Shown: in pieces, positions 11,160-55,635 of the stretch
Position numbering within the stretch: the first letter of the stretch is position 1
Layout: each line of letters begins with the position of its first letter
From: Nitrospirales bacterium
GTDB taxonomy: Bacteria; Nitrospirota; Nitrospiria; Nitrospirales; UBA8639
Assembly: GCA_965223295.1 (NCBI GenBank)
Contig: CBDCWC010000002.1
Location: 96,001-160,000, forward strand
Length of the DNA: 64,000 nt
Reading direction: 5' to 3'
Notes under the pieces: model-generated
What the model was told of the DNA's origin: nothing
What the model saw: only the letters and a program-made list of their open reading frames with translations
The model's database searches: none
Translations under genes and position numbers: made by a program

Positions 11160-13739
11160 ATGAGTAAATTAATTGAGGCTCTCAATCGGTTGCAAACAAT
11201 GAAAGACGACGCTCCTCCTGCCATGGTTGCCGAAACAGATCCCGTTGAGGTTATGGAAACTCCGTCACTTTTCAGTTCTGTTATCCCATCTGAAAGTCCG
11301 AAGAAAGTTTCCGTCAAGAAAACGGTGGAAGCGGATCGGCCATTGTTCAATATGGCTGCGGATGATTGGCTTGGGGTGATCCAGCAAGAGTATCTGAGTA
11401 AATTTGTCAGAGAGGGTGGCGGTGCGGTGAAGGTTGCCGTCTTCCCTGATCACGACTCTTTAAAGAATTGCCGTCAGGAGCTAGATACCTTAGCCAATAA
11501 AGAAGCGTATGTTTTTGTGAAGGTTGATGCCCGGTTTACGAAAATACATATGGTGGAGCGGCTCTTTCACAAAATTGCCAAGCAGATCGATTGGGATGAT
11601 TTAGCCTATCGGTTTCTGCTTCGGTTATTCGAAGAAAATGGATATCAAAAACCTGATAGCCGGAAAGAGTTCTCTTTGCGTCAGATTGCGGCGTTGAATG
11701 AGCGGAAAGAACCCATGTTGCGTCGGGATGTCCAGACGTGGCTAGAAAAATCTATCGAAGGGGACTCCGGGCTTTGTCGTGAGTTTCGGATGGCGATGAT
11801 CCGTCTCTGTATAGCTCAATTAGAAGCTGGTGATTCAGATCGCGTGATGGCTACGGCTGTGAAGCAATGGTTGTGTGGTGATCTTCGTCTCATCTCTGGG
11901 GTCAAGAAAGCTATGATCTATCAAAAGGTGGCGCGGCATAATGCGCGGCATATGTTGACGTCGTTGACTCGGTGGTTGCGGTTGACTGGCATGGGCGGGC
12001 TCATTCTTACTCTGGATATTTCCCGGTATTTTGGTAAACGCCATGAATCTCCAGAAGACGGTTCCTTGAAATTCACACCTTCAGCCACGATGGATTTATT
12101 TGAATTGCTTCGACAATTTTTAGATACGGCTGATGAAATTGAAGGCCTTCTCATGGTGGTGATGGCACCTCAAGAATTTCTCACAGATTCGCGCCGAGGT
12201 GTTGACCGATATGAAGCGTTAAAGTTGAGAGTCTGGGATGATATCCGGCCGAAACATCGCCAGAACCCTTTAGCCTCAATGGTGCGGATTCAAGGTGTGG
12301 AAGAAGGAGCCCTTGCGTCCAGTCCCCTTTCTCCGCCAACCCTTCAAGGGCATGGGACTGTGCCGGATGTCGAGGCTCGGCGAGTGATGGAAGGTCTCCG
12401 GGCAGGGGTGCCCAATCAGAGCGTGGTTGCGGCGTTAGGCTGTTTGCAGCCTGAGATCGAGGGACGGTTCCGTCGGATGCTGGAGGCCACTCAACAAAAC
12501 ATTACGACAGGTCCTTGTCCGCGAGGGATGGTGATTGAGGGTGGATTTGGAAGTGGAAAATCTCATGTCCTAGAGTTTTTGCAACATCTGGCCTTGGATG
12601 CCAATTTTATTTGCAGCCGCGTGGTCATTAGTAAAGAAACGCCGTTCTATCATCCTGTTCGACTGTTTTATTCGGCTATTGAATCGGCCGTTGTTCCGGA
12701 TAAACAGGGGGAGGTGTTTGCGGAAATTGCCAGTGAATGTGATGTGTGGGCGCCTCGCTATAAGGAGCTTGTGGCCTGGGTCAATGATCCTGAGCATCAT
12801 ATTGATACGCGTTTTGCTGCGACCTTGCTTCTCTACGAACGGATGAGTTCGGATTTAGAATTAGGTCACAGAATGGCTCGTTTTTGGACAGGGGATCCGA
12901 TTGGGGTCGGAGAGTTGAAAAAGTATCTGAAAGAGGCTGGTTTTGGAGGGCATTATACGTTTGGTCGCGTATCGGCCGCTGAGCTAGCCCTTCAGCGGTT
13001 CCAGTTCGCATCTCGGTTGATGCAGGCAGCTGGCTATGCCGGATGGATTTTGCTCATTGATGAAGCCGAACTGATCGGGCGGTATTCTGTCAATCAACGA
13101 GCGAAGTCTTACGCGGAAGTGGCTCGCTTAATGAATATGATCGATGGACAAATGCTGCCAGGGCTGGGAACGGTCATTGCCTTAACCAACGATTTTCGAG
13201 AAGAAATTTTAGAGAAAAAAGGCGATAGCGTGAAGTTGTTGGAGAAACTTCGTAACAAACAGACTGAGGCTGATCGGATCCTAGCCGACAAAGCGGAATT
13301 AGGCATGAGCCTTCTTCAATCTCAACGCATTCCGCTAGGACAACCGTCGTTCGAGACGATTCAGGAAGTGTATCAAGTTGTCCGAGGGCTTCATCTTAAG
13401 GGACATGGCTGGCGTATGTGGGAGAATACCTCAGAGGATTCACCCACGATGGTGGCTGGAACGAGAATGCGGAAATACGTGAAAAGTTGGGTCACGGAAT
13501 GGGATTTTTCCCGTCTCTATCCAGGGGAAGCCTGTGAAATTGAAGTGTCACCTTGGAAGCCTTCCTATGATGAACCCGAAGAGGTTTTTGATGAACCAGC
13601 AGAACCTGAAGTCAGTCCTACGATACAAATTTTGGAAGTGCCTGACGTATCGCCTAGCAGTTCTTCAGAAGATGCCGGTGAATGTGAGGCTCCTTCCACT
13701 TCTTCGACCATGGATTCTTTGCCTCCGTCCTCGTCTTAG
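11160..13739 (+). CDS. Fused double DUF2791/BrxD-like P-loop protein (paralogue 1)
   Basis: C-domain EGLRAGVP, Walker A GGFGSGKS, Walker B ILLIDEAE. N-domain GGGAVKV...LRQFLD...RYEALKLR lacks the P-loop. Extra low-complexity N- and C-terminal tails. Confidence 0.8.
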   Translation: MSKLIEALNRLQTMKDDAPPAMVAETDPVEVMETPSLFSSVIPSESPKKVSVKKTVEADRPLFNMAADDWLGVIQQEYLSKFVREGGGAVKVAVFPDHDSLKNCRQELDTLANKEAYVFVKVDARFTKIHMVERLFHKIAKQIDWDDLAYRFLLRLFEENGYQKPDSRKEFSLRQIAALNERKEPMLRRDVQTWLEKSIEGDSGLCREFRMAMIRLCIAQLEAGDSDRVMATAVKQWLCGDLRLISGVKKAMIYQKVARHNARHMLTSLTRWLRLTGMGGLILTLDISRYFGKRHESPEDGSLKFTPSATMDLFELLRQFLDTADEIEGLLMVVMAPQEFLTDSRRGVDRYEALKLRVWDDIRPKHRQNPLASMVRIQGVEEGALASSPLSPPTLQGHGTVPDVEARRVMEGLRAGVPNQSVVAALGCLQPEIEGRFRRMLEATQQNITTGPCPRGMVIEGGFGSGKSHVLEFLQHLALDANFICSRVVISKETPFYHPVRLFYSAIESAVVPDKQGEVFAEIASECDVWAPRYKELVAWVNDPEHHIDTRFAATLLLYERMSSDLELGHRMARFWTGDPIGVGELKKYLKEAGFGGHYTFGRVSAAELALQRFQFASRLMQAAGYAGWILLIDEAELIGRYSVNQRAKSYAEVARLMNMIDGQMLPGLGTVIALTNDFREEILEKKGDSVKLLEKLRNKQTEADRILADKAELGMSLLQSQRIPLGQPSFETIQEVYQVVRGLHLKGHGWRMWENTSEDSPTMVAGTRMRKYVKSWVTEWDFSRLYPGEACEIEVSPWKPSYDEPEEVFDEPAEPEVSPTIQILEVPDVSPSSSSEDAGECEAPSTSSTMDSLPPSSS

Positions 13740-13931
13740 CATCCAGCTTGGTGCGAGACACGTTCCCTGTGTTAATCTACAGTCCGAGTGAAGGAGCGTT
13801 TGCCAAGAACGCTCTTTGCAGCCCTATTCTTTGTCACGTCTTTTCCTCTTTATTTTGTTTCTAGGCACTTCATTTTCTCCTGAAACCCGTCTTCATTTGC
13901 CTATTCCCGGATAATCGTTAGGATAGTCTTC

Positions 13932-15227
13932 TTGCTACACAGTTCCTCCTCGCCTGTATCAACCATTTTCCGTATGTGGTGGCCGTTAGCGGGCAGTTGG
14001 CTTCTGATGGGAGTGGAATTGTTGTTAGTCGCGGCCATTGTGTCTCGTTTAGCCAATCCGGAAATTCATTTAGCCGCCTATGGTGGGGTGGTCTTTCCAC
14101 TTTCCCTGTTGATTGAAGCACCCATCATCATGATTTTGGTGGCCTCAACGGCGTTATGTAAAGACTGGCAGGCTTACCGCTTGATGCGAAATTTTATTGT
14201 GACGTTAGGGGCGGGTCTCACGTTCCTTCATATGCTTTTGGCTTTTACCCCTTTGTACGATGTGGTTGTGAAAGTCATTCTAGAGGCTCCACAAAGTATT
14301 TGGGAGCCTGCCAGAATGGGGTTGCAAATGATGACGCTCTGGACCATGGCAATTGCGTTGAGGCGGTTTTTCCAAGGTCTGGTGATTCGGGCGAGCCGGA
14401 CTCGTCTTGTGGGTATTGGGACGATACTTCGCTTGGGCGTTAGTGCATCAGTCTTATTTGCTGGGCTGATGATACAAAACTTTTCAGGCATCTTTGTGGC
14501 AACAGCCGCTCTCTCGGCTGGGGTGCTTGTTGAGGCAGGTTTTATGTTCTGGTGTGTTCATCCGATTGTGCAAAACTTGCGTGATCAGCCTGTGGTGCCC
14601 GAGTGGAAGCCGTTAACGCTTTCTTATTTAATGAAATTTTATTGGCCATTGGCGGTTACTCCGTTAATTGCTTTGGCCACGCTCCCTATCTTAAGCGCAG
14701 CCATCAGTCGTATGCCGCAGGCCTTAGAATCATTAGCGGTATGGCCAGTGATAAGCGGGCTCACCTTCGTGTTCCGAAGTGTGGGGATTGCGGTTCAAGA
14801 GGTGGTGGTGACTTTTTCAGACCGGCCTCAATATTTTCGGCCTCTGCAACACTTTGTGGGGTTGGTGTCTTTGGGTTCTTTCGGATCGTTGTTCTTGATT
14901 GCTGCTACGCCGCTGTCAACGTTTTGGTTTGGAACTGTCGCGGCTCTCAGTCCTGAGCTTGCGGCCATGGCCAATACTGCACTGTGGATAGCGGTGATCT
15001 TGCCAGCCCTAAGTCCCTGGGAAAGTTATTTTCAAGGAAAACTGGTCTATCATGGCGCGACCGTTTCTATTACACAAGCTGTCAGTCTCTATCTCATAGG
15101 AATGGCGCTCCTCTTAAGCCTGGGAATCATATATGGACAAATCCCAGGTTTGTATATAGGACTCACCGCGGTTCTGGTTGGGTTAGGAGTCCAAATAAGC
15201 TGGCTTTGGAAGCATAGTCAAAGATGA
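13932..15227 (+). CDS. MATE/MOP-superfamily-like multi-pass membrane protein
   Basis: About 12 TM segments in two related halves (WWPLA / YWPLA repeats). Start codon uncertain. Confidence 0.7.
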   Translation: MLHSSSSPVSTIFRMWWPLAGSWLLMGVELLLVAAIVSRLANPEIHLAAYGGVVFPLSLLIEAPIIMILVASTALCKDWQAYRLMRNFIVTLGAGLTFLHMLLAFTPLYDVVVKVILEAPQSIWEPARMGLQMMTLWTMAIALRRFFQGLVIRASRTRLVGIGTILRLGVSASVLFAGLMIQNFSGIFVATAALSAGVLVEAGFMFWCVHPIVQNLRDQPVVPEWKPLTLSYLMKFYWPLAVTPLIALATLPILSAAISRMPQALESLAVWPVISGLTFVFRSVGIAVQEVVVTFSDRPQYFRPLQHFVGLVSLGSFGSLFLIAATPLSTFWFGTVAALSPELAAMANTALWIAVILPALSPWESYFQGKLVYHGATVSITQAVSLYLIGMALLLSLGIIYGQIPGLYIGLTAVLVGLGVQISWLWKHSQR

Positions 15228-15235
15228 TTATATAA

Positions 15236-15273
15236 GGGGTCAGACTCGAATTAAATAATTCGAGTCTGACCCC
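15236..15273. repeat. Perfect 18-bp inverted repeat
   Basis: GGGGTCAGACTCGAATTA-aa-TAATTCGAGTCTGACCCC. Confidence 0.9.
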
Positions 15274-15288
15274 CTATTGTTAATATTT

Positions 15289-15380
15289 GAGAGTGTTGTA
15301 TATTGCAACGCACCAGAGGCAAATTTGCCCGTGATGACGTTGGGTGCCAAGCACCGCTGGTGGCTTTTTTCAACAGGCCC
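15289..15380 (+). mobile_element. Internally deleted MITE copy (92 bp) with 5-bp TSD (TATTT)
   Basis: Ends GAGAGTGTTGTA / TTCAACAGGCCC. TATTT occurs at 15284-15288 and 15381-15385. Shares CAGAGGCAAATTTGC with the 1097 copy. Confidence 0.8.
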
Positions 15381-15395
15381 TATTTAGATAGAAGG

Positions 15396-15434
15396 TGCAT
15401 GAAAATCCATTCAAAGTGTATGGATTTTCATGCA
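15396..15434. promoter_or_regulatory. 15-bp inverted repeat upstream of a response regulator (operator or hairpin)
   Basis: TGCATGAAAATCCAT-N9-ATGGATTTTCATGCA. Confidence 0.5.
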
Positions 15435-15549
15435 TAGTGAATATGTGATGGGACAGAGTTGAATCTTGTAAGTTATTGAATTGTTTATAAAATTTTTTCT
15501 AATTTCTAGGGATATTTATAGGAACATACATTGCTTGTGTTTGGGTACT

Positions 15550-15915
15550 ATGCAGAAAGTATTAGTCATTGAAGATGATGAACTGGTACGAGATTCTGTC
15601 TCGCTTTCTTTGGAATCGGCTGGGTATGAGGTGATGGAGGCATCGAGTAGCCTGGAAGGCCTTCAAAGTCAGAAGCAATTTGGTGCTTCAGTCATCATTT
15701 CTGATGCCTTGTCGTTAGAAAACGAAGAAGGGAAGGCTTTTCAGCAATTTTGCCTACAATCTCCAGGCATTCCTCTTATTACATTAATGGGTTCCATGTC
15801 AGATTCTGATACTTTGCACTCAGACTCTGCAGTGTCTAAGTCTCCACACACGTTGCAGAAACCCTTTACTCTAGATGAGCTTCTCGCCACAGTTGAAAAC
15901 GCCTTAACTCATTAA
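15550..15915 (+). CDS. Single-domain response regulator (receiver)
   Basis: MQKVLVIEDD...VIISD...LQKPF. ATG at 15550 preferred. Confidence 0.85.
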   Translation: MQKVLVIEDDELVRDSVSLSLESAGYEVMEASSSLEGLQSQKQFGASVIISDALSLENEEGKAFQQFCLQSPGIPLITLMGSMSDSDTLHSDSAVSKSPHTLQKPFTLDELLATVENALTH

Positions 15916-16666: not shown

Positions 16667-18442
16667 GTGTCAATCTCTGCACGATATGTGTTGCCAGTAG
16701 TGGTCCTGATGTGGGTGTTACTTCCGCTAGCCATTTCGGCCGAGGTCTTGCCTGAACAGGTGGCTGTGCTCGTAAATATCCAAAATCCTGCCAGTCAAGA
16801 ATTGGCGAACTACTATATGGAGCGTCGACATATTCCGCCTGTTAACCGCGTGGACTTGGATCTCCCTACCTCCAACGCGATTAATCGCGATGCGTACGAC
16901 AAGGATTTGGTTGTGTCTGTGCGAAAAGCATTAAGGAAAAAGGGATTGGCGGATACGATTAGCACATTGGTGAGCGTATTTGGCATACCATTGCGAGTCC
17001 GTGCTCCCAAGCCAACGGAAGAAGAACAAGTCTGGATAGAGGATGCCAGAGGCTGGAGACAGTCGGCTCTGAATCTCCTGCACGAACAGGAACAAGAGGT
17101 ACGAAATTTACAGGCGCGTGTGATGCTAGCTGAGCAGCCTCTTGCCAAATTCATTATTCCGCCACCAGATACAAGTGGGCAGCCAACCACATCCAAAATC
17201 CGCACTTGGAAAAATAGCCTCACGACATTGCTCAAGACCAGCCATGAAGACATTGTTGTAAACGCTCATGCGCAGAACAAAGAGGAGGTCCTTGCCGTAT
17301 ACCGGAAAATTGTTCGACGTATGTTTGGGAAATTTGGCGTGAAGGCGTTTAGTAGAGAGATGTCTGGTTCATCGGTTGATTCTAAGGGTGAAGAAGTTGT
17401 GGCTCAGCAGCGGATAGCAAGGCTCATGCAGCAGCCGTCCTTCAAGACGCGGACTAAAGCCTATGGCCTTGTGCAGCCAGCGTTTGGTCTATGGGGGATT
17501 TTGGCACTCGCCCATTGGGAAATAGAACGATATGGACAGGCTGACGGAAGTGCAAGTGTCGATAGTGAGCTGAGTTTTTTGTGGTGGAATGCTGAAACGT
17601 ATCCTGTTGGGGGACGTCTGCCCAATCCCTTGTACCTGGGGTATGCTGGCCAGGTTGCTGAGTGGCCACTTCCTACTTTAATGGTGAGTCGATTGGATGC
17701 CCCAACTCCTGAACATGTGCGAGGGATGATTGATCAATCCATTGAAACGGAATCACGAGGTCTTTCCGGCAAGGTGTACGTGGATGCACGAGGCATAAAA
17801 AAGGAAGGCGCTCCTTTGTCCACTGGGTTTTACGATTTGGATATGCAGAATTTTGCAACACAATTCCGGAAAGGTTCGAACTATCCTGTGATCTTAGAAA
17901 ATACCGAACAACGTTTGAGTCAACCGGGAGATGCACCAAATGTTGCGCTCTATGTTGGGTGGTATCGGCTGAGGCATTACGAAAATGCTTTTACGTTTAA
18001 TCCGGGTGCAATTGGCTATCATATTGCCTCTGGCGAAGCGGCGAATGTTCATAATCCGCAAGAGTCCGGGTGGTGTAAAAACGCTTTGGAGCGGGGAATT
18101 ACGGTCACACTCGGTCCAGTTGATGAACCCTATTTAGATGCGTTCCCTTTGCCCACGGAATTTTTTGGTCTGTTGTATTCCGGGAAGTACTCTCTTGTCG
18201 AAGCCTATTATCTTTCCACACGGTATCTCAGTTGGAAAATGGTGCTCTTTGGCGATCCCTTGTATCGCCCTTGGCCGCCTTCGGATGTTGGGCGGCAAAA
18301 AGTGGTGCAGACATTATTACAGAAGGCCTCTTTGCCGAATCCTCCTTCTTTGCACATCTTTCCTTCTCCAAACACGGAATATGATTCCAGAAAATTCCCA
18401 GGAAAATATCCTCCATTTGATGTGAGAATGTTGAATCCATAA
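16667..18442 (+). CDS. TIGR03790-family exported protein (PEP-CTERM system-associated)
   Basis: Signal peptide, V.VLVN...S..LA.YY...R.IP, ASVDSEL, MVSRLDAP, LYVGWY, PGAIGYHIAS and G.V.EPYL.AFP motifs. Confidence 0.85.
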   Translation: MSISARYVLPVVVLMWVLLPLAISAEVLPEQVAVLVNIQNPASQELANYYMERRHIPPVNRVDLDLPTSNAINRDAYDKDLVVSVRKALRKKGLADTISTLVSVFGIPLRVRAPKPTEEEQVWIEDARGWRQSALNLLHEQEQEVRNLQARVMLAEQPLAKFIIPPPDTSGQPTTSKIRTWKNSLTTLLKTSHEDIVVNAHAQNKEEVLAVYRKIVRRMFGKFGVKAFSREMSGSSVDSKGEEVVAQQRIARLMQQPSFKTRTKAYGLVQPAFGLWGILALAHWEIERYGQADGSASVDSELSFLWWNAETYPVGGRLPNPLYLGYAGQVAEWPLPTLMVSRLDAPTPEHVRGMIDQSIETESRGLSGKVYVDARGIKKEGAPLSTGFYDLDMQNFATQFRKGSNYPVILENTEQRLSQPGDAPNVALYVGWYRLRHYENAFTFNPGAIGYHIASGEAANVHNPQESGWCKNALERGITVTLGPVDEPYLDAFPLPTEFFGLLYSGKYSLVEAYYLSTRYLSWKMVLFGDPLYRPWPPSDVGRQKVVQTLLQKASLPNPPSLHIFPSPNTEYDSRKFPGKYPPFDVRMLNP

Positions 18443-44060: not shown

Positions 44061-44918
44061 ATGTACAAAGTCAAGAAGCGGCCGATAAAAAAAGAGAAAG
44101 CCCCGGTTCTCTATAACATTCTCGAGAACTATACGGACCACGATCCTCCCGGGAATGTCATGGTCTGTGCCATGACCGGTGCAGTTAATCTCGCCATGCG
44201 CACGAAGGTGCTTTCTGAGAGTTATGATATCCCTCAAGACACGGTGGAACGCCTACTGGCCGAGGGTGGCGTCTTTCTCTATCCACAAGATGGTCTCCTG
44301 GTCACAAAAGGCGCGTTTGTGTCCAAGGTCGATGCAACTGGGAAAGAACCCACGCAAACTTGGGTCATGGATGTTGAGCAATATGCGGCGGCCGAACGGT
44401 TGCGACAAAGTTATGGAGTATCACTCGAAGAGGCCATGGAGCGTGTGTTTTATCGTGGGTTGCCGCAAGAATTGCAAGATCGCCTTAAGAAGCCAAATTT
44501 AGACTTAGACTATGCTACGCTGGAATCAGCGGCCGCTGCTGGCGGCGATATCCGGTATATCGATTTTAGAAAAGATTGGTCCCCGCATTTTAAGCGTAAA
44601 TGCGTCATGCCAGATGGACGTCTCATTGAAACCAGCGGCTTGGAAGATTTTGCTGAATTGCATGGCACCACAGTGGAGGATGCCCGTACGCTCCTGGATC
44701 ATGGAGGAACGTTAGAGTTAAAAGATCTAGGAGTGTTGGCCTGTCAAATTATCAATGGACAACCTTCCGTCGCTCGTTTCAATGTACGGCAGTACAAGAA
44801 AGCCAAAGCCTTAGTCAAAGAAAAAGAGCTTCATCTATTAGATGCCCTCAGTGAAGTGGCCTATCAAGATCCCATCCTTATGCGCGCCCTCAGCAAAGCC
44901 GACACCTCTTCCTCCTGA
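44061..44918 (+). CDS. Hypothetical protein with internal duplication
   Basis: RBS AAGGAG and a long ORF with two related halves. No family recognised. Confidence 0.75.
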   Translation: MYKVKKRPIKKEKAPVLYNILENYTDHDPPGNVMVCAMTGAVNLAMRTKVLSESYDIPQDTVERLLAEGGVFLYPQDGLLVTKGAFVSKVDATGKEPTQTWVMDVEQYAAAERLRQSYGVSLEEAMERVFYRGLPQELQDRLKKPNLDLDYATLESAAAAGGDIRYIDFRKDWSPHFKRKCVMPDGRLIETSGLEDFAELHGTTVEDARTLLDHGGTLELKDLGVLACQIINGQPSVARFNVRQYKKAKALVKEKELHLLDALSEVAYQDPILMRALSKADTSSS

Positions 44919-45976: not shown

Positions 45977-46774
45977 CTATTTCATATTTCTGACTAATGG
46001 TGGTTTTACGGCTTTGGCGGCTAGGGCCATGGCGAGGGGGTGGGGGATGATCTTGCTGAACCAGTGGGCGAGGCGACCTTGCCAGCCTATGGTTACGACG
46101 GTGCGTTTGGATTGGAGAGCCTGCAGCGAGGTTTGGACAACTTGTTGCGGGGATTGTGCCGATAGGGCGTGATTGGGTTTGTGTCCGGCAGTTTGATGGA
46201 AATCCGTGTCGGTATAGCCAGGACAACAGACTTGTATGGTGATGCCTTGGTCCTGTGTTTCCCTTGCCAGCCCTTCTGAAAAAGTAATAAGAAAGGCTTT
46301 GGTGGCGGCGTATTCCGTCATATAGGGAATAGGGAAAAATCCGGCCACAGATGCGACGGTAATGATGGCGCCTTGTTTGCGATCCTGCATGGCCGGCAAA
46401 AATAGTCGAATGCTTTCTACGATCGTGTTGATATGCAATAGAAGCATATTTTGAATGCTTGCCATTGGCATATCGGCAAATTCCCCATAGCGTCCAAACC
46501 CCGCATTATTGATCAAAAGTGAAACCTCTGATCCATAAGACTGGGCCAGTGCATGCAATCTTTCTGCGGCTTGAGGTTGGCTCAGATCTAGTGATTCCAC
46601 CCAGATCGTACCGTGGGATAGAGCCTGCAGTTCCGTCTGCAATGTCTTGAGACGTACCTTATCTCGTCCAATAAGGAGGAGATCATAGTCTTGACTTGCG
46701 AGAGTTCTGGCATATTCCGCTCCAATCCCTCGAGAGGCGCCGGTAATGACTGCAAATGGTTGCATCTGATTCAT
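45977..46774 (-). CDS. Short-chain dehydrogenase/reductase
   Basis: TGASRGIG, LINNAGFG and YAATK motifs. Confidence 0.93.
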   Translation of the reverse strand: MNQMQPFAVITGASRGIGAEYARTLASQDYDLLLIGRDKVRLKTLQTELQALSHGTIWVESLDLSQPQAAERLHALAQSYGSEVSLLINNAGFGRYGEFADMPMASIQNMLLLHINTIVESIRLFLPAMQDRKQGAIITVASVAGFFPIPYMTEYAATKAFLITFSEGLARETQDQGITIQVCCPGYTDTDFHQTAGHKPNHALSAQSPQQVVQTSLQALQSKRTVVTIGWQGRLAHWFSKIIPHPLAMALAAKAVKPPLVRNMK

Positions 46775-47031
46775 CTCCTTTCTTTCTCTCTCATGTCTCG
46801 CAGTATATCTGGTGAGCTTCTCTCAAGGTAGTTGTCGAGAACAAGGAGCACAAATTTTCCAAAAACAGCATGTATTTTTTGCACGGCCATGATGCAAATG
46901 GGCTGAAAATATTAAGAATTTATTAGTTTCTTCCGAATACTTCTCTCAGGTGCCAATCAGATGGATTCCCACTCAGGGGTGGGATCACGTGTGTGCGAGG
47001 AGAGTCTTCCCAAAAATGATGACAAAGGAAT

Positions 47032-47910
47032 GTGAGTGCCATGTCTGATTCATACGAGGTTGAATCGGCTACCAGTCTATTGGATTGTGCTGATCCCCAG
47101 ACTTCTCCGCCAGTTCCGTCCCAAACGGGAAGCCTGGAACAGGCCTTAGCCGATATTGAAGAACAAGCGGCCGAATTAGTGAAAACGACCAAGCAAGTGA
47201 TGGCGTCGTTTAAAAAAATAAAAGATGCGGCCAAAGTGGGCGATTTGGTGAAGCTTCGTAAACTACTGGAGGAAGGCAAGACGGCAACGTTGAATTTGGG
47301 CTGTGATTTCGTCAAAACGCAAGAACGTCTGAACTTTGATGAAGCCAGTTATTTGGCTGGAAAAGCCTTTCGTCAAGAACTCCTTTCTACCGCCCAACAA
47401 ATGGGGGTAAACCTTTATGAACATGATGAATTTTTGTTTTCGTATCCAGTTCTTTTGAAAATCCTGCATGAGGAGAGAGCTGTCTCCATTGATCGTATGC
47501 GCGAAAGCCGGTTGCGCCCATCCGTACTCGTGAAACGCCTCAAAGAAGTTCAAAATAAGCCGTTGCGCTTTAAGCCCAAGACGTTTTTAGAAATGCTCTA
47601 TACGGCCTATGCGATTGTCGTTGCGGGTCGTGGGAAACACTTAATTGGAAAGGGGACGGTGATTCCGCTCCTTGAACTCTATCAATTGTTAACGCTTTTG
47701 CCTTGGCAGGCCAGTGAATATACACGACAGGAGTTTGGACGTGATGTGTATTTACTCGATAAAAGTGGAACTATCGCGACGAAAAATCACTATCGGGCAA
47801 ACTTCCATGCCAGTACTGGGGTTCGGGATGTTTCAAAAACCTTAACGGTGATTGCGCAAGGTGGACGAGAAAAAACCTATTATGGGATTTCATTTGTGAA
47901 AGCAAGCTAA
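47032..47910 (+). CDS. Hypothetical protein leading the double-DUF2791 cluster
   Basis: N-terminal helical/coiled-coil region and C-terminal globular region (LYQLLTLLP...YTRQEFGRDVYLL). Co-oriented, 82 bp before the first ATPase. Confidence 0.75.
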   Translation: MSAMSDSYEVESATSLLDCADPQTSPPVPSQTGSLEQALADIEEQAAELVKTTKQVMASFKKIKDAAKVGDLVKLRKLLEEGKTATLNLGCDFVKTQERLNFDEASYLAGKAFRQELLSTAQQMGVNLYEHDEFLFSYPVLLKILHEERAVSIDRMRESRLRPSVLVKRLKEVQNKPLRFKPKTFLEMLYTAYAIVVAGRGKHLIGKGTVIPLLELYQLLTLLPWQASEYTRQEFGRDVYLLDKSGTIATKNHYRANFHASTGVRDVSKTLTVIAQGGREKTYYGISFVKAS

Positions 47911-47992
47911 CGACGGTGAGCATGTTATTTAAGTTTCCCTAGGGAGAACCGACAAGAGGAAACAGCATAAAAGGATTATTGAGGAAAAATTT

Positions 47993-50269
47993 ATGGCACC
48001 ACAGGAATGGCTCAACGTTCTGAAAGTTGCATACCTTCAAGGGTTTATCCGTCGTGGGGGTTCGGCGGTGAAGTTTGCAGTTGTCGAGGAAGCTTCCGAC
48101 ACGAAGTCGGTAGTTTCTGGCATTGAGGAAATCGCCCGAGAGGAAGGCTTTCTCACACTGGCTGCCGATTCCCGTAAGACCAAGGTGCAGCTGATAGATC
48201 TCTTGTTTCAAGAAATGGCGAGACGGATTGATTGGGAGGGGCTGGCCTTCGAATTCATGAAAAAGCTGTTTCATGATCATGAATGTCAGATTCCTGAACA
48301 GCGGGAAGAATGTAGCTGGCAAAGTGTGGCGTCGCTCAATAATTCTGATGAGTCTACTTTGAAACGCGATGTGAACTCCTGGCTTGAACGTGCGTTGTTT
48401 CAAGATTTTCAGATGAGCCGGGAATTTCGTTTAGCGATGATCCAGTTTTGCCTGGCGCAGATTGATGAGGTTACACGACAATCAAAAGAAGCCAATGCCA
48501 TTCGATCATGGCTTTGTGGCGAGTTGAAACAAATGTCTGTTCTCAGGAAATTATTGATCTTCCAGAAAGTCAATCGCAGCACGGCTCGTGATTTGATTGC
48601 CTCGTTTACGCATTGGGTGCGTCTTATCGGCAAGCCAGGTGTGGTCTTAACTATTGATATTTCGGCTTTTATGGACTCAAAAAAGAAAGACACGAATTCG
48701 CTGAATTATACGCCGTCTGCCGTCATGGATGCTTATGAAATGTTACGGCAATTTATCGATGGCAGTGATGATATGGAAGGGCTGTTGCTCGTTGTCGTGA
48801 CCCCGAAGAAATTTTTAACTGACCAGCGGTTAGGCCTCAATCGTTATGAAGCGTTGAAGCTTCGGATATGGGACGATGTACGAGATAGGTTTCGGGCAAA
48901 CCCGTTTGCGCCAATGGTTCGGCTCTTTGAGCAGGCTGAACAGTTTGGAGACAGCTCCGCGTTAGGGCGTGTGGGTAGCCGACAGGATGATGTTCAGCAT
49001 CAACAGGTGATTGAGTCGCTGCGGGCTGGAGTGCCCAGTCCAGGGGCAGTGAAAGCCCTGGGCTGTTCTCAACCAACCGTCAAATCCAAATTTCAGCAAA
49101 TGCTGCAGGATGCGGAAGCCAGTATTCATAAGGGCTGGACGACGCAGGGTCTGCTCATTGAAGGGGGATTCGGGACAGGCAAGTCACATTTATTAGAATC
49201 GCTTCGGCATATGGCTCTCGACTCAAATTTCGTGTGCAGCAAAGTGGTGATTAGTAAAGAAACCCCGCTCTATAGCCCGGCGTTGATGTTTCGTGCGGCG
49301 ATGGGCGCAGCCAATATTCCCCAGAAACGAGGCGATGCTCTAGCCGAAGTAGCAGGTGATTTGAATTTCAAGAGCCCTCAATATGCGGAATTTTACGAAT
49401 GGGTCCATCGTCAAGGTGGAGAAATTGATGGGCGGTTTGCCGCCACGTTGTTTCTGTACGAACGAATGGTCAATGATCCTGAATTGAGTCATCGAATCCT
49501 TCGCTATTGGGCAGGTGACCCAATGACTGATGCCGAAATTAAACGGTATCTGAAATCCTGTGATCCCAATGTGTCGTATCGGTTTGAACGGGTCTCACCG
49601 ATGGAAATGGCCTTGCAGCGGTTTAAATTTGTCTCACGGTTGATGATAGCTGCGGGGTATTCCGGGTGGATTTTACTCATTGACGAAGCAGAAATCGTTG
49701 GCCGGTATTCCTTTAGGCAGCGGGCTCAATCCTACGCGGAGTTAGCACGATGGCTAGGACGTTTAGAAGCATCGAGTTTTGCTGATCTGGGTTATAAGTC
49801 GGGGTTAGCTGCTGTGATGGCGTTAACCGATGATTTCCAAAGCGCTATTTTGGATGAAAAAGGAGACCGCGAAAAAGTTCCGGAGAAGTTACGCGAAACC
49901 GGATCGGAAACGGATTTGGTGCTGGGTCGTCAAGCTGAACAAGGTATGCGATTGATCGAGTGCGAAAGGATTCCTTTGGTTGGTCCCTATGATCAGTTGG
50001 TAGAAGATATCTATCACAAAATTCGTGCAATTCATGGTGCGGCATATGGTTGGGAACCTCCACAAGTGCCAACAATTGAGCGGCTATCCAGCACACGAAT
50101 GCGTGAGTATGTGAAAGGGTGGATTACTGAGTGGGATTTGAAACGACTCGATCCGAATCAGAAAGTTGATATTGAATTGACGGAGATTAAACAGGATTAT
50201 TCAGAGGATATTGAATTAGAAGGTTTGCAGGAAGAAGTTCGGCAACCTGCTCTGACGGAGTTTCCGTAA
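47993..50269 (+). CDS. Fused double DUF2791/BrxD-like P-loop protein (paralogue 2)
   Basis: ESLRAGVP, GGFGTGKS, ILLIDEAE. N-domain without P-loop, with RYEALKLRIWD. Confidence 0.8.
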   Translation: MAPQEWLNVLKVAYLQGFIRRGGSAVKFAVVEEASDTKSVVSGIEEIAREEGFLTLAADSRKTKVQLIDLLFQEMARRIDWEGLAFEFMKKLFHDHECQIPEQREECSWQSVASLNNSDESTLKRDVNSWLERALFQDFQMSREFRLAMIQFCLAQIDEVTRQSKEANAIRSWLCGELKQMSVLRKLLIFQKVNRSTARDLIASFTHWVRLIGKPGVVLTIDISAFMDSKKKDTNSLNYTPSAVMDAYEMLRQFIDGSDDMEGLLLVVVTPKKFLTDQRLGLNRYEALKLRIWDDVRDRFRANPFAPMVRLFEQAEQFGDSSALGRVGSRQDDVQHQQVIESLRAGVPSPGAVKALGCSQPTVKSKFQQMLQDAEASIHKGWTTQGLLIEGGFGTGKSHLLESLRHMALDSNFVCSKVVISKETPLYSPALMFRAAMGAANIPQKRGDALAEVAGDLNFKSPQYAEFYEWVHRQGGEIDGRFAATLFLYERMVNDPELSHRILRYWAGDPMTDAEIKRYLKSCDPNVSYRFERVSPMEMALQRFKFVSRLMIAAGYSGWILLIDEAEIVGRYSFRQRAQSYAELARWLGRLEASSFADLGYKSGLAAVMALTDDFQSAILDEKGDREKVPEKLRETGSETDLVLGRQAEQGMRLIECERIPLVGPYDQLVEDIYHKIRAIHGAAYGWEPPQVPTIERLSSTRMREYVKGWITEWDLKRLDPNQKVDIELTEIKQDYSEDIELEGLQEEVRQPALTEFP

Positions 50270-50371
50270 TGGCTTCTTCGCGTAGGCTTGACTAGGCTTT
50301 ATGCCGATGGAAGCAGGTTCCAAACAGGCGTCAAATAGGCATTCCCCAACAACATGTAAAGGATAGGTGTT

Positions 50372-52696
50372 ATGGAGTTACAGCCTCAGGAATGGTTGCA
50401 GACGATTCGAGAAGAATATCTCCAACGATTTGTTGGACAGGGTGGTTCGTCCGTCAAATTTGTCGTCACGCCTTCTGATTCTGATCGAACTCAGGTTCAA
50501 GAACGCTTGGTCTCCCTGGCTGAAAGGGAACATTATGCCAGTGTGAGTGTTGATGCCAAGGAGACAAAAATTCATATGATGGATAAGTTCTTCCATCAAG
50601 TGGCGCGCCGGGTTCCGTGGGATGAGTTAGCGGCACAATTTGTCCGGCGGTTGCTTCAAGAAAATGGTTACCAGATTCCAGAAGGCAAAGAAGATTTCTG
50701 TATGGCCGGAGTGGCTCGGATGAATGAACGTGCCGAACCCCTGTTGCGGCGCGATTTGAATAGCTGGTTAGAACGAGCGATTTATCGTGATACTCATATG
50801 TGTCAAGAATTTCGGATGGCCATGATTCGCCTTTGCTTGGGACAATTAGATTCTGGGTCTGATAGTTCCTTTATGATTGAACCGATCAAAGCCTGGTTAT
50901 ATGGTGAGTTACGTCAAATTTCCGCAGTGAAAGAAGCCTTGATTTTTCAAAAAATTGTCAGAACCAATGCCCGGTACATGTTTGCATCCTTGTCCCGCTG
51001 GCTGCGTGTCGTTGGAAAAACTGGTCTCGTGGTGTCACTGGATTTAAGCCGATGCTTAGAAAGTAAAAAGCCCGAATCTCCAGAAGGCTTCTACTACGGA
51101 GTCTCCGCGACACTTGATGCCTACGAAATGTTGCGGCAGTTTATCGATGGGACAGATGATTTAGAGAGTCTCATGTTGGTGGTCTTTGTTCCTCCGTCAT
51201 TTTTAACAGATGCACGCCGTGGCCTGAATCGTTATGAGGCATTGAAGCTGAGGATCTGGGATGAAGTTCGTGACCGGCAATACCAAAATCCCTTAGGGGC
51301 ACTGATTCACTTGGGTGGTTTTGCCGATGATCAAGAAAACGTGACGGCCCATGAACTATACGAAGAACAGGCTGCCATGGCCAATGGGAATGTGAGCTAT
51401 CAACGCGCAATGGAAGCGTTACGTGCAGGAGTGCCCAATCGGGATGTTGTCAATATCTTGGGCAGTCACCAACCCGATCTAGAGGGGAAATTTCGGCGGT
51501 TGCTCCAAGAAATGGAAACCCAGGCTCCTCAAGGGATTCCTACCAAAGGATTGGTAATTGAAGGGGGGTTTGGAAGCGGAAAATCCCATCTGCTAAAAGC
51601 GTTACAGCATGTAGCGCTTGAGCAAAACTTTGTCTGTAGCCCAATTGTGATTAGTAAGGAAACACCCTTCTATAATGTCGCCACGCTGTTTCGCGCGGCT
51701 ATTACCGATGCGCTTGTTCCTGGTAAACAGGGAGATGCCTTAACCGAAATAGCGGGAGAGTTGAATTTTCAAAGTCCGCAGTATATCGACTTATTTGATT
51801 GGGCGCATCGAAAACAATCTGGCTGTGATTCCCGATTTGCCGCCACGCTCTATTTGTATGAACGGATGATGAATGATCCAGAGCTCAGCCACCGCATGAT
51901 CCGATTTTGGTCAGGAGATCCTTTGAGCAATGGGCAGCTCAAAAAGTATCTCCAGGGTTGTGCTCCTGAAGAAGAATATGTGTTTGAGAGAGTGTCGGCA
52001 CAGGAGTTGGCTTGGCATCGCTTCCAATTTGTCTCACGCCTGATGATCGCTGCGGGTTACAAGGGTTGGGTCTTGCTTATTGACGAAGCAGAAATTATTG
52101 GCCGTTATTCATTTAAACAACGCACCAAATCCTATGCAGAGGTGGCCCGTTGGATGGGGGTAATGGAAGAAACGGTGTGTCCTGGCATCATGAGTGTGGT
52201 GGCGTTAACCGATGATTTCCAAAGTGTGGTGATGGACGAAAAACAAGACACCAGGAAGATTGAGCAATTATGTCAGGATGGAGAGGCCGTCGGCGGTACC
52301 TATCTGGCGCATTCTGCCCTTCAAGGGATTCGTCTGATTGAGCAAGAGAGTGAGCCGCTTATTCGGCCTTATGAACCGATGGTCGATGCCTTATATGAGC
52401 AACTTCGAGGGCTCCATGGCTCTGCCTATAGCTGGAATCCTCCACCGGTTTCGGCTGTGGAAAAATTGTCCAGTACGCGAATGCGTGAATATGTCAGAGG
52501 CTGGATTACAGAATGGGATTTGCGTCGATTGTATCCCGAAGCTCAGCTCGATATTGAAATTTTAGATGTTTCCCAAACCTATGATGAGGATCAAGAGCTA
52601 GAATCCGCTATCACCGATGACGCAGATAATGTGCAGACCACTGAAGCACAAGAGGCTATGCTTGCCGTTGCCATGGAAAATCAAGCTCCTGTGTGA
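50372..52696 (+). CDS. Fused double DUF2791/BrxD-like P-loop protein (paralogue 3)
   Basis: EALRAGVP, GGFGSGKS, VLLIDEAE. N-domain without P-loop, with RYEALKLRIWD. Confidence 0.8.
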   Translation: MELQPQEWLQTIREEYLQRFVGQGGSSVKFVVTPSDSDRTQVQERLVSLAEREHYASVSVDAKETKIHMMDKFFHQVARRVPWDELAAQFVRRLLQENGYQIPEGKEDFCMAGVARMNERAEPLLRRDLNSWLERAIYRDTHMCQEFRMAMIRLCLGQLDSGSDSSFMIEPIKAWLYGELRQISAVKEALIFQKIVRTNARYMFASLSRWLRVVGKTGLVVSLDLSRCLESKKPESPEGFYYGVSATLDAYEMLRQFIDGTDDLESLMLVVFVPPSFLTDARRGLNRYEALKLRIWDEVRDRQYQNPLGALIHLGGFADDQENVTAHELYEEQAAMANGNVSYQRAMEALRAGVPNRDVVNILGSHQPDLEGKFRRLLQEMETQAPQGIPTKGLVIEGGFGSGKSHLLKALQHVALEQNFVCSPIVISKETPFYNVATLFRAAITDALVPGKQGDALTEIAGELNFQSPQYIDLFDWAHRKQSGCDSRFAATLYLYERMMNDPELSHRMIRFWSGDPLSNGQLKKYLQGCAPEEEYVFERVSAQELAWHRFQFVSRLMIAAGYKGWVLLIDEAEIIGRYSFKQRTKSYAEVARWMGVMEETVCPGIMSVVALTDDFQSVVMDEKQDTRKIEQLCQDGEAVGGTYLAHSALQGIRLIEQESEPLIRPYEPMVDALYEQLRGLHGSAYSWNPPPVSAVEKLSSTRMREYVRGWITEWDLRRLYPEAQLDIEILDVSQTYDEDQELESAITDDADNVQTTEAQEAMLAVAMENQAPV

Positions 52697-52818: not shown

Positions 52819-53118
52819 TTATGGCATCGTACTGCCAGGTGGGGGGCCTGATCTGAATGGCCGTTTCTCTTCCAGTGGTCGCGCTTCATTCACCACGAGA
52901 ATTCTCCCTCCTAGATCTGTTCCATTCAGAGCATTGATGGCTTCAGAGGCTTCTTCTTGACTGGACATTTCCACAAACCCAAATCCTCGTGACCGTCCTG
53001 TAAATCGATCGGCTATGACCTTGGCCGAGATCACGGTGCCTTGTGATGCGAAGTGATCGTGCAATTCCTGATCAGTGGTTGAAAAGGGGAGGTTTCCTAC
53101 ATAAAGTTTAGCGCCCAT
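52819..53118 (-). CDS. RRM-domain RNA-binding protein
   Basis: KLYVGNL (RNP2), RGFGFVEM (RNP1) and VNEARP motifs. RBS AGGAGG. Confidence 0.95.
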   Translation of the reverse strand: MGAKLYVGNLPFSTTDQELHDHFASQGTVISAKVIADRFTGRSRGFGFVEMSSQEEASEAINALNGTDLGGRILVVNEARPLEEKRPFRSGPPPGSTMP

Positions 53119-53426: not shown

Positions 53427-55157
53427 GTGTCGGATGGGACGCTAAACAAAGAAGCACCCTTGCAGGCATATGGCATATGGAGCAAATTTGTAGAGAGCGT
53501 TTTAAGGGGATTGGAATTTCTTTATCAACAGACTATCCCGATATTAACCCTTCTTTTTGGTCTCTGTTTACTGGTGATCTATATTCATATTTCGCAGTTG
53601 AAAACACAAATGGTCGCAACTATTGCCCTCCGGGGTGCTGATACTCATTCCAGGGAATCAAGTGACATGCGTGAGTGGTATTCAATCGAAGCCGTTCAAC
53701 GGCTGCATGTCTTAGGCATTAAAGATTCAGAAGCGTACCGAGAAAAAGAAGGCGCTATTCCTTTGCCTGCGTTGTTAATCCGGAACTTGGGTGGCCAGAT
53801 GTTTTCTGGGAGGCCCGGGGAACGCGTCCGTTTAGTGAGCAAGCATCCGTTCCATCAAGTAGGAGATTCCGAGCAGGTGATGGATTCCTTTCAAGATAAG
53901 GCCTGGACATTTTTAAACCAACATCCTGAGCGGTCTTTTTATCGTGTCGAGCAAGTAGATGGACTTCAATCCCTGCGTTTTGCTACAGCCGCACGTATGC
54001 AGCAAGAGTGCGTCAATTGTCATAATGAGAACGCTGATAGTTTAAAACGTGATTGGCAAGTGGGACAGGTGGGGGGAATAGTAGAAGTCGTCTACCCATT
54101 AGATTCGTTAGAGAAAATCACGAGGATGGACTGGGTCGACTCTTATGGGATGATGGGAGTCTTGGTTCTGCTATGGCTAGGAGGGTTTGGATTAGTTGTG
54201 CTAAAGCTTCGTCGAGTATCCGAAGAGTTAGAAAATCAAGTACGGAATCGGACGTCCGACTTGAATGCCACAAATCGCCAGTTGGAATTGGAAATTTCTG
54301 AACGGCACATAGCGGAAGAGACGCTACGCCAGGCCAGAGATAACCTGGAAAAACGTGTGCAAGAACGAACGGCAAAATTAGCTGCCTCGAATGCCGAAAT
54401 GATCCGAGAAGTGGCCGAGCGGAAAAGGGCCGAAGAAGATATCCGTAAGCTGAATGCGACGCTTCTACAACGTTCTGCGCAATTGGAAGCCAGTAATAAG
54501 GAACTAGAGGCCTTTAGTTACTCCGTCTCTCATGATCTCCGAGCTCCGTTGCGGGGAATTGACGGATTCAGTCAAGCCGTCCTAGAAGACTATGAGGAAA
54601 AATTAGATGAGTCAGGGCGAAATTACTTGAAGCGGGTGCGTGCGGCGAGTCAGCGGATGTCGCAACTCATTGATGCCATGCTGAATTTAGCCCGTTTGAC
54701 TCGAGCGGAAATTCATACGAAAGCCTTTGATATGAGTGTGATCGTAGAGGGAATTTTAGATGATCTACAAAAGCAGGAGCCTGAACGAGAAGTGAAATGT
54801 GTTGTGGCCCGTCATGTATTCGCCACTGCAGATCCGCAACTCATTCGAGCGGTTTTGGAAAATCTCTTAGGTAATGCCTGGAAATTTACTCGACAGCAGC
54901 CCAAGCCTCGGATTGAATTCGGGCATGGTCAGTATAAGGGGCAGGCGGCGTATTTCGTGAAAGACAACGGTGCAGGCTTTGATATGACCTATGCCCACAA
55001 ACTGTTTGGCGCCTTTCAGCGACTGCATGCTTATACAGAGTATCCGGGGGTTGGCGTAGGGTTGGCCACGGTACATCGCATTGTCCAGCGCCATGGAGGA
55101 CAAATTTGGGCAGAGGGCGCAGTCGACAAGGGTGCCAGTTTTCATTTTACATTGTAA
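53427..55157 (+). CDS. Membrane sensor histidine kinase with DUF3365-like heme-c sensor domain
   Basis: Two TM segments flank a domain with CVNCH. Coiled coil, SHDLRAPL H-box, NAWKF and DNGAGF motifs. Confidence 0.92.
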   Translation: MSDGTLNKEAPLQAYGIWSKFVESVLRGLEFLYQQTIPILTLLFGLCLLVIYIHISQLKTQMVATIALRGADTHSRESSDMREWYSIEAVQRLHVLGIKDSEAYREKEGAIPLPALLIRNLGGQMFSGRPGERVRLVSKHPFHQVGDSEQVMDSFQDKAWTFLNQHPERSFYRVEQVDGLQSLRFATAARMQQECVNCHNENADSLKRDWQVGQVGGIVEVVYPLDSLEKITRMDWVDSYGMMGVLVLLWLGGFGLVVLKLRRVSEELENQVRNRTSDLNATNRQLELEISERHIAEETLRQARDNLEKRVQERTAKLAASNAEMIREVAERKRAEEDIRKLNATLLQRSAQLEASNKELEAFSYSVSHDLRAPLRGIDGFSQAVLEDYEEKLDESGRNYLKRVRAASQRMSQLIDAMLNLARLTRAEIHTKAFDMSVIVEGILDDLQKQEPEREVKCVVARHVFATADPQLIRAVLENLLGNAWKFTRQQPKPRIEFGHGQYKGQAAYFVKDNGAGFDMTYAHKLFGAFQRLHAYTEYPGVGVGLATVHRIVQRHGGQIWAEGAVDKGASFHFTL

Positions 55158-55185
55158 GTGACAAATACTAACCAGGGAGGCAATC

Positions 55186-55635
55186 ATGACAAACAAACAC
55201 ATTCTTCTAGTTGAAGATCATCCCGATGATGAAGAGCTGACCATGCGTGCGTTAAAGAAAAACAATATTATGAATGAAGTGGTTGTTGCTCGTGACGGAG
55301 TAGAAGCTTTGGAGTATCTATTCGGGACCGGGGCTCATGCTGGAAGAGATATGAATATTATGCCACAGATCATCTTGTTGGACTTGAAATTGCCTAAAAT
55401 TGATGGCTTGGAGGTCTTGCGACGGTTGCGCGCGGATGATCGCACAAAATTTTTGCCAGTCGTTGTGCTCACGTCCTCCAAAGAGGAACAAGATATTGTG
55501 AAAAGCTATCAATTAGGTGCCAATAGCTATGTGCGCAAGCCGGTAGATTTCCAAGAATTTTCTCAAGCGGTTCAGAACTTAGGACTGTATTGGCTTATAT
55601 TGAATGAGTCAGCGCCCGAGCGAGTTCCGGTTTAA
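55186..55635 (+). CDS. Response regulator (Rcp1-like receiver)
   Basis: [22 protein letters not shown] and GANSYVRKP motifs. Confidence 0.95.

Follow-up and report, generated by a model that had tools for sequence, protein, structure and literature searches.

Fused and duplicated BrxD-like ATPases near a histidine kinase and a receiver in Nitrospirales: a possible domesticated derivative of a five-gene cassette

Introduction

What does an ATPase of the BrxD type do in a genome that carries no bacteriophage exclusion (BREX) system? The question is raised by a locus of a Nitrospirales bacterium (assembly GCA_965223295.1, contig CBDCWC010000002.1, positions 96,001 to 160,000 of the forward strand; this stretch of 64,000 nucleotides was analysed as a whole and is referred to as the window). 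Here a gene for an orphan protein, called A (47041..47910, plus strand, 289 amino acids (aa)), is followed in the same orientation by the genes of two large BrxD-like ATPases, B1 (47993..50269, plus strand, 758 aa) and B2 (50372..52696, plus strand, 774 aa). A preliminary description of the sequence had listed three co-oriented open reading frames (ORFs) of 292 aa (47032-47910), 758 aa and 774 aa with gaps of 82 and 102 bp, and all three were found again, with intergenic gaps of 82 bp between A and B1 and 102 bp between B1 and B2. The first frame is open from a GTG at 47032 (292 aa), and since most homologues of A have 289 aa, the start of A is probably the ATG at 47041.

BrxD has been described as an AAA+ ATPase of the ORC/Cdc6 type without DNA-binding domains of its own, and in type 2 BREX it is tightly linked to the helicase BrxHI, which it has been proposed to load or activate (PMC12839542). 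The preliminary description regarded the locus as a stand-alone module, either a new defence system or a domesticated ATPase complex with a cellular role. Here, we trace the relatives of A, B1 and B2 in other bacteria and their neighbours in Nitrospirales. With somewhat less than even confidence, we read the locus as a domesticated sensor or loader module of a five-gene cassette that is functionally coupled to a kinase and receiver pair encoded downstream (53427-55635).

BrxD-like ATPases with a predicted dead and live half

B1 and B2 are 50% identical over 748 residues, and PF10923 (BrxC_BrxD) is matched by both halves of each, which agrees with their earlier characterization as diverged paralogues built from two BrxD-like halves. 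In B1 a BrxD-like half lacking a Walker A motif (residues ~1-330) is fused to an intact BrxD-like ATPase half (~335-745), and B2 has the same two halves. The PF10923 scores are 112.4 bits for B1 (E 3e-32), 111.8 bits for B2 (E 5e-32) and 112.0 bits for a third paralogue, B3, that is discussed below, in three stretches each and with a gathering threshold of 22.2; positions 141-331 of the profile (44-343 in the case of B2) fall in the N half, and 6-123 and 171-283 in the C half. Genome-wide, PF10923 matches were found only in B1, B2 and B3 (758-859 codons). The NCBIfam BrxD equivalog model NF033438 gives 78.9 and 99.6 bits for B1 and B2, below its cut-off of 350, and for the B proteins PADLOC returns only BrxD matches and weaker SngB matches.

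Alignments of 17 N halves and 16 C halves, taken from fused and split relatives, reveal two different sets of motifs. The C half has an invariant Walker A motif FG[TS]GK[ST]H and an invariant Walker B motif LLIDExE. The N half has the invariant sequences GGxx[VI]K[FV] and hhhhD[ILN][ST], without GK[ST] and without the catalytic glutamate, and each B protein is therefore a predicted dead/live ATPase pair within one chain. Among the loci that were fetched, all 46 orthologues of B1 have both Walker motifs intact, and in the faster evolving B2 GK[ST] is kept in 39 of 39 orthologues and the DE of Walker B in 38 of 39. The P-loop region also gives faint matches to DnaA, DnaI, Hda, ORC-CDC6-like proteins and a helicase loader, all of them far under the family cut-offs.

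The absence of BREX partners, which had been claimed for the surroundings of the locus, extends beyond them. No match to PglZ (PF08665) was obtained in the 3.78-Mb genome, which is 100% complete (2 of 14 control genomes had one), and among the neighbouring genes none encodes a nuclease, a methylase, a helicase, PglW, BrxHI or PglX, the search for PglX being confined to this neighbourhood. In one respect the starting point does not fit this subfamily: BrxD had been taken as a single-domain ATPase of some BREX loci, and the proteins found here normally occur as a dead/live pair outside BREX.

Kinship with a five-gene cassette of other phyla

A scan of species-representative genomes with an alignment of A gave 271 candidate stretches, of which 238 were confirmed; the best 80 of these (50 with fused and 30 with split ATPase genes) were mapped as loci by script, their ORFs being labelled by BLASTP. 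Downstream genes were counted where the locus left room for them, which for split loci means at least 3 kb after the ATPase genes. The split loci follow the order A (~265 aa), N-half protein (~320-335 aa), C-half ATPase (~415-430 aa), a protein of 185-193 aa (the 188-aa protein below) and an SNF2 helicase of ~740 aa that usually ends in a Mrr_cat nuclease domain according to Pfam and has ZorD and DpdE as its best PADLOC models. With enough room downstream, the SNF2 gene is present in 19 of 21 split loci and the 188-aa gene in 16 of 21. The records of the 30 split loci are labelled as Deltaproteobacteria/Syntrophales, Dehalococcoidia, Bacillota, Binatia, Gemmatimonadaceae, Thermodesulfovibrionia, Nitrospinota and others, and homologues of A head the cassette in at least seven other phyla. 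The expectation that the first protein of the locus co-occurs with such ATPases was thus borne out by the neighbourhoods of loci from many phyla.

The window shares with the split cassette the order A, dead, live, with 44-55% identity for A and 44-57% for the dead and live ATPase halves. In the 50 fused-type loci B is one gene; an SNF2 or 188-aa gene follows in none of the 34 that have room downstream, and a kinase and a receiver follow in 33 of these 34. In the genome under study the 188-aa protein has no homologue, and the one SNF2 match is unlinked, on another contig, and 36% identical over the motor core. From gene order and similarity, the Nitrospirales locus is a putative descendant of the A-dead-live core of the cassette that has lost the effector genes. 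The idea of a stand-alone module is correct as far as BREX partners are concerned and fails where it implies a free-standing invention, the locus being a fused and duplicated remnant, as it appears, of an SNF2-Mrr cassette.

No PADLOC model matched A or the 188-aa protein, and no name for the five-gene cassette was found in PADLOC 2.0.0 or in the literature searched. Neither a double BrxD nor the five-gene cassette nor the kinase-linked form is described in that literature, which did not include the supplements of PMC12839542, and no PADLOC system fits the locus, which had been presented as a candidate for an undescribed system.

Two split cassettes have unusual surroundings. In one (L081:1-9904) the cassette stands right after genes for a DUF499 protein, a DUF1156 methylase and a PLD-SNF2 protein, and its SNF2 is accompanied by a separate nuclease of the pPIWI-associated type; by gene content these surroundings look like a defence island, and DUF499-centred sets of the DUF499/DUF1156/PLD-SNF2 type count among BREX-related systems according to PMC12839542. 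In the other, from Binatia (L088:13055-16468), a 1137-aa protein with zinc-ribbon, nucleotide cyclase, AAA_16 and tetratricopeptide repeat regions is encoded between the live ATPase and the 188-aa gene.

Wider searches returned many more relatives. An exhaustive search of representative proteins with B1 gave 1523 with E-values up to 0.001, 350 of them up to 1e-30, mostly of half length, and a metagenome scan confirmed at least 460 of 599 stretches. Kinase and receiver labels were given in 8 of 80 metagenome loci, all of the Nitrospirales fused type, by a simple ORF caller that left 12 of the 80 loci, mostly GC-rich, without any labelled ORF. Fused-length proteins occur elsewhere too: one locus (L120), with A and a fused B of 736 aa and no helicase or kinase after them, shares 46-48% identity with split relatives and only 34-35% with the window proteins; in another (L122) a fused B is followed by SNF2; and five further proteins from the representative search (P0247-P0251) have 35-42% identity. 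Judging from these identities, dead and live proteins were fused independently in another subfamily, that of L120. Such independent fusions argue for a physical pairing of the dead and the live protein, which is a prediction for the two split proteins of the cassette.

A divergent split A-dead-live trio, 33-38% identical to A, was found in 7 of 38 genomes of the genus g8, which are 2.1-3.2 Mb in size. Five of the six g8 loci (L100-L103, L110, L111) lack a helicase, the next genes encoding a DUF4143 ATPase, a major facilitator superfamily transporter or an ATP-binding cassette transporter, and one of the six (L110) ends after a partial 188-aa gene.

Distribution and conservation in Nitrospirales

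The order was surveyed for A in 301 genomes that are at least 80% complete. A was found in 62 of them: in the family of the window 60 of 105 genomes have it, and in the other families the counts are 0 of 171, 0 of 4 and 1 of 20, the last with a split cassette. It is present with conserved synteny in 41 of 43 genomes of the window's genus. A quick maximum-likelihood tree was built from 47 rows hand-picked for spread, namely the three window proteins, 24 fused proteins from 13 fused loci and 20 split loci as concatenated halves. It separates fused and split forms with a support of 100 and contains a B1 clade (100) and a B2 clade (99) that are sisters (85). B3 is on a long branch (1.06) and groups with B proteins from other genera that have one copy (85). 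B1 and B2 stem from a duplication of the fused gene in the window's genus.

B3, the third fused double BrxD-like paralogue (11352..13739, plus strand; PF10923 E 4e-32; ORF open from 11160, conserved start M65), is encoded 36 kb away and lacks an accompanying A gene. Its identity to B1 is 45%, and orthologues with 59-83% identity are found in three further genera. Its neighbours (11160-15915) are a 246-aa ORF with a weak match to PF20109, which comes before it, and then a 431-aa ORF without a family and a receiver of 144 aa. Two of these were tried as partners and rejected. The 246-aa ORF is not a hidden homologue of A, having no similarity to it by BLAST or hidden Markov model (HMM). The 431-aa ORF is adjacent to B3 in three genera and is found in 12 of the family's 13 genera, some of which lack A; as a partner of B it was also dismissed on its position in the genus g9, where it lies far from the second B copy.

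The window was compared with six orthologous loci, over which the receiver has 94-99% identity, A 80-91%, B1 75-89% and B2 69-87%. The corresponding ranges are 71-85% for TrmI, 69-85% for an HD protein, 67-87% for a phosphoribosyltransferase, 55-89% for the short-chain dehydrogenase/reductase (SDR) encoded upstream of A and 64-80% for the kinase. The ratio of nonsynonymous to synonymous substitutions (dN/dS, by NG86) was calculated against the nearest locus only, synonymous sites being saturated otherwise; it is 0.04 for both A and B1, 0.06 for B2, 0.05-0.18 for other neighbours and about 0 for the receiver. A, B1 and B2 behave as core genes, unlike a fast-evolving patchy defence island. Of the two roles originally considered, the domesticated complex is supported by this core, syntenic status under purifying selection, and defence fits less well. 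Searches of plasmid, phage and viral collections, in which such uncultured lineages are rare, gave no relative.

The kinase and receiver downstream

Downstream of B2, beyond a gene on the opposite strand for an RNA-binding protein of the RNA recognition motif (RRM) type (52819..53118, minus strand; PF00076 E 5e-24), the window encodes a membrane histidine kinase (53427..55157, plus strand, 576 aa) and a stand-alone CheY-like receiver (55186..55635, plus strand, 149 aa). Pfam and the sequence together give the kinase a transmembrane segment, a periplasmic Tll0287-like domain with CxxCH, a second transmembrane segment, a coiled coil, HisKA and HATPase_c. PF00512, PF02518 and PF00072 are matched above their cut-offs by the pair, which thus has the domains of a two-component system, and phosphotransfer is predicted. 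PADLOC has no meaningful match for kinase or receiver. This pair, together with B3 and the kinship to a helicase-nuclease cassette, had been overlooked in the preliminary description, which had named the immediate flanks correctly: the SDR gene (45977-46774) and the RRM gene are both on the minus strand, and base composition is host-like, the GC content of A-B1-B2 (0.45-0.50) matching the remainder of the window.

In four other genera (L104, L106, L107, L114) a single fused B, the kinase and the receiver are all on one strand, with 9-85 nt between B and kinase and with kinase and receiver overlapping by 4 nt or abutting. One of these loci (L114) has the order B-kinase-receiver; the 668 bp in front of B leave no room for A, and a search of this 91%-complete genome for A was negative. 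The window's genus and two others (L108, L109) have B1, B2, the opposite-strand RRM gene and the longer kinase; the RRM gene is thus present in genera with two B copies and absent where A, B, kinase and receiver form one block. The kinase of the other genera has 429-444 aa and no periplasmic domain and is 51-61% identical to residues 222-576 (~355 residues) of the window kinase, and the receiver is 94-99% identical within the genus, 81-94% in most other genera and 65-66% in the genome G212. The periplasmic domain with its CxxCH of the haem-c type is found only in the longer kinase, which could sense redox state or a gas in this nitrite oxidiser.

Co-occurrence of A and the receiver was counted in the 61 genomes of the family that are at least 90% complete, for A of the fused type and receiver orthologues at E 1e-40 or better. 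Both are present in 29 genomes and neither in 29, A alone in one (G064) and the receiver alone in two (G181, 82% identity; G212, 65%), counts that overstate independence because the genomes are kin. Within single genera the two genes also go together, with both in one and neither in four genomes of the genus g11 and both in three and neither in one of g9. Of the two genomes with a receiver alone, G181 has a kinase remnant and the receiver, with a B3-like gene 3.4 kb away, and G212 has B-kinase-receiver without A. The ATPase module is probably coupled to the phosphorelay, as far as gene order and co-occurrence can tell.

Two further loci of this kind are worth recording. One (L105, the same as L067; G098:C1:4054000-4073000) has A, a B remnant of ~50 aa, the kinase and the receiver, with a B3-like second copy ~10 kb off. 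The other (L065) is a 6.3-kb contig labelled Nitrospinota that carries the fused A-B-kinase-receiver set at identities of the Nitrospirales level (85% for the receiver), and is either a transfer or mis-binned.

Protein A and its candidate winged helix

No Pfam, NCBIfam or PADLOC family covers A. In a large protein collection it has 158 homologues, of which the named ones are mostly from Nitrospirales and the members from other groups are 46-56% identical. An AlphaFold2 model of A, made from 15 sequences, has a mean predicted local distance difference test score (pLDDT) of 80.7 and consists of a disordered N-terminus, a helical hairpin (residues 35-99) and a small alpha/beta domain; the C-terminal 193 residues modelled alone reach a pLDDT of 86.2. 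A Foldseek search of the PDB returned nothing at E 0.001 or better for whole A or for its C-terminal part, a wide structural search with whole A was swamped by the helical hairpin, and the ESM Atlas gave unnamed clusters only for the C-terminal part (score 0.93). Residues ~178-292 align with winged-helix domains of a Pol III subunit, Polycomblike, ORC/Cdc6/Cdt1, kleisin C-termini and MarR at Z 4.7-6.3 (4.8-5.8 for the winged helices of ORC, Cdc6 and Cdt1). The best match has Z 6.3 with a root-mean-square deviation of 3.8 A over 94 residues, and 25 chains reach Z 5 or more and none Z 8. The C-terminus of A is possibly winged-helix-like and could bind DNA or the ATPase head, which we treat as a lead only; the role of adaptor or DNA-binding subunit once suggested for A is weakly supported by this domain.

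Sequence searches of the PDB with B1 and with profiles of the C half, of A and of the 188-aa protein gave only noise at the level of P-loops and coiled coils, the best match being the BrxC-BrxB entry 9zn5 (E 0.022 over 46 residues). The predicted complex of B1 (1-735) and A (35-292) scored 0.07, the mark being 0.32, and was used neither for nor against an interaction.

Other features of the window

About 100 nt upstream of A is a promoter-like motif (46910..46938, plus strand) that reads TATTAAGAA, about 14 nt, then CCGAAT. Across 13 aligned upstream regions of orthologous loci its core letters do not vary, and it has a single match in the window; it may be a promoter of the alternative-sigma type. 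Genome-wide the pattern has four matches, equal to the four of a reversed-pattern control, and no regulon is shown, and a promoter and terminator scan gave counts equal to those of shuffles. Four sequencing runs of unknown kind, all from one study, contain the stretch, and no RNA run is listed for it. Two other ORFs of the window have no Pfam or PADLOC family, one of 591 aa (16667-18442) and one of 285 aa (44061-44918), the latter with 76-94% identity across the syntenic block.

Possible function and alternatives

In the reading that we tentatively prefer, A and B would form a complex and B1 and B2 a hetero-oligomer, in which A would give in trans a winged-helix-like, possibly DNA-binding, domain to a dead/live pair of the ORC/Cdc6 type. 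In the ancestral cassette the complex of A and the ATPases would recognise a state of the DNA and load or activate the SNF2-Mrr effector, and in Nitrospirales the phosphorelay would replace this effector. Either the ATPase complex would feed the kinase as a cytoplasmic input, or the phosphorylated receiver would switch the ATPase complex, and the output would be regulatory rather than the destruction of foreign DNA. A more specific proposal, which we regard as somewhat doubtful, is that an immune-type DNA sensor was rewired into signalling when the SNF2-Mrr effector was swapped for a histidine kinase and a CheY-like receiver; such a sensor would translate the state of the cell's DNA or nucleotides into a regulatory output, to which a haem-type signal from the periplasm would contribute in the window's genus.

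A number of observations weigh against this reading, and several of them suit an alternative that we consider rather unlikely, namely that the proteins form an autonomous DNA-associated AAA+ complex, for example in chromosome maintenance, replication or repair, with the kinase and receiver as neighbours by inherited synteny only. Plain synteny is a live alternative because the upstream SDR gene is conserved too, the whole block from SDR to receiver being syntenic across the family, and because all fused loci belong to one family and one contig labelled Nitrospinota, the count of 33 in 34 does not stand for 33 independent events. B2 and the kinase gene, with the oppositely oriented RRM gene between them, are not one transcript in the window's genus. 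In G064 (L115, the same as L043; G064:C1:3176000-3192000) A, B1, B2 and the RRM gene were kept and the kinase and receiver lost. The g8 loci and L120 carry A and ATPases with neither helicase nor kinase, from which it follows that an A-ATPase core can persist without either, and the strong purifying selection on A, B1 and B2 would be as expected of an autonomous ATPase. Against autonomy stand the tight co-directional packing of B, kinase and receiver in four genera and the joint presence or absence of A and receiver within g11 and g9. The kinase-less G064, moreover, is where B2 has the sole Walker B with DQ instead of DE, on a long branch, although this is a single case. Other parts of our reading are open to objection as well. 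The profile-profile comparison of N half and C half gives a probability of only 6.7%, with the Walker B strands in register; the winged helix of A depends on Z-scores of at most 6.3, which the tool rates as a possibly common arrangement; and that the ancestral cassette is a defence system we infer only from its domain content and patchy spread.

A continuing anti-phage or anti-plasmid role, in which A-B would detect invading DNA and respond by way of an effector from another locus, by growth arrest through the phosphorelay or by ATP-dependent sequestration of DNA, seems to us quite unlikely. The family to which the ATPases belong (PF10923, BrxD-like), the presence of their closest relatives in SNF2-Mrr nuclease cassettes and the patchy, cross-phylum occurrence of split forms agree with it, as does the L081 cassette beside DUF499, DUF1156 and PLD-SNF2 genes, a set that PMC12839542 treats as BREX-related. 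It is made less likely by a neighbourhood that holds no nuclease, methylase or helicase in a genome without PglZ and without a homologue of the 188-aa protein, by a syntenic trait that is core to the genus (41 of 43 genomes) and no variable island, and by host-like base composition and an evolution as slow as, or slower than, that of housekeeping neighbours; the lack of plasmid, phage or viral matches points the same way, in collections with few uncultured relatives. That the locus is the drifting remnant of a defence cassette without effector is hardly credible. The helicase-nuclease and the 188-aa gene are indeed missing, but the frames are open over their full length, dN/dS is 0.04-0.06, the Walker motifs are kept, and the genes have been retained across several genera and duplicated.

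Should the preferred reading of a domesticated, kinase-coupled module be right, the locus would be of interest beyond Nitrospirales. Defence genes that turned to housekeeping or signalling are seldom seen with the ancestral and derived forms together, and here both are available, the derived form occurring, stripped, fused, duplicated, kinase-linked and strongly conserved, in marine nitrite oxidisers of ecological importance. If the coupling to the phosphorelay is true, an ORC/Cdc6-like ATPase pair would be reusable as a signalling module, and there would be a handle on the role of BrxD-type ATPases, those of BREX included.

Comparison with known systems

Among described proteins, BrxD of type 2 BREX is the nearest relative, and the B proteins share the PF10923 family with it. 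The ancestral cassette resembles the coupling of BrxD to BrxHI (PMC12839542) in that BrxD-like ATPases are likewise joined to a helicase. The present locus differs in that its dead/live pair is fused and duplicated and has no helicase, and the helicase of the relatives is SNF2-Mrr, as opposed to the Ski2-like BrxHI. Membership in BREX of any type is refuted by the absence of PglZ from the genome, and there is no BrxC/PglY of ~1200 aa either. The BREX-related systems of PMC12839542 are centred on DUF499 and distinct from this module, and are present only as neighbours in L081.

Initiators and helicase loaders of the ORC/Cdc6 and DnaA/DnaC types are brought to mind by the faint P-loop matches and by the winged-helix-like C-terminus of A. 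These matches are far below cut-offs, however, and the winged helix would here come from a separate protein. Shango consists of SngA (a TerB protein), SngB (an ATPase) and SngC (a helicase). The SngB model of PADLOC matches both B proteins (E 5e-17 and 1e-13), more weakly than BrxD, and the design of ATPase plus helicase is similar, but no TerB protein and no helicase are encoded nearby, the neighbours being SDR, RRM, kinase and receiver. The present locus resembles Detocs and other two-component-based defence systems in that a histidine kinase and a receiver-only protein are encoded beside genes of defence ancestry; it differs in having no receiver-effector protein and no meaningful PADLOC match for kinase or receiver.

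The five-gene cassette remains the nearest counterpart, with A followed by a BrxD-like ATPase without Walker A and then by an intact one. In the window the two halves are fused, and a kinase and a receiver stand in place of the 188-aa gene and SNF2-Mrr. In Nitrospirales, moreover, the locus is vertically inherited, syntenic and slow-evolving, with two to three paralogues of the fused ATPase.

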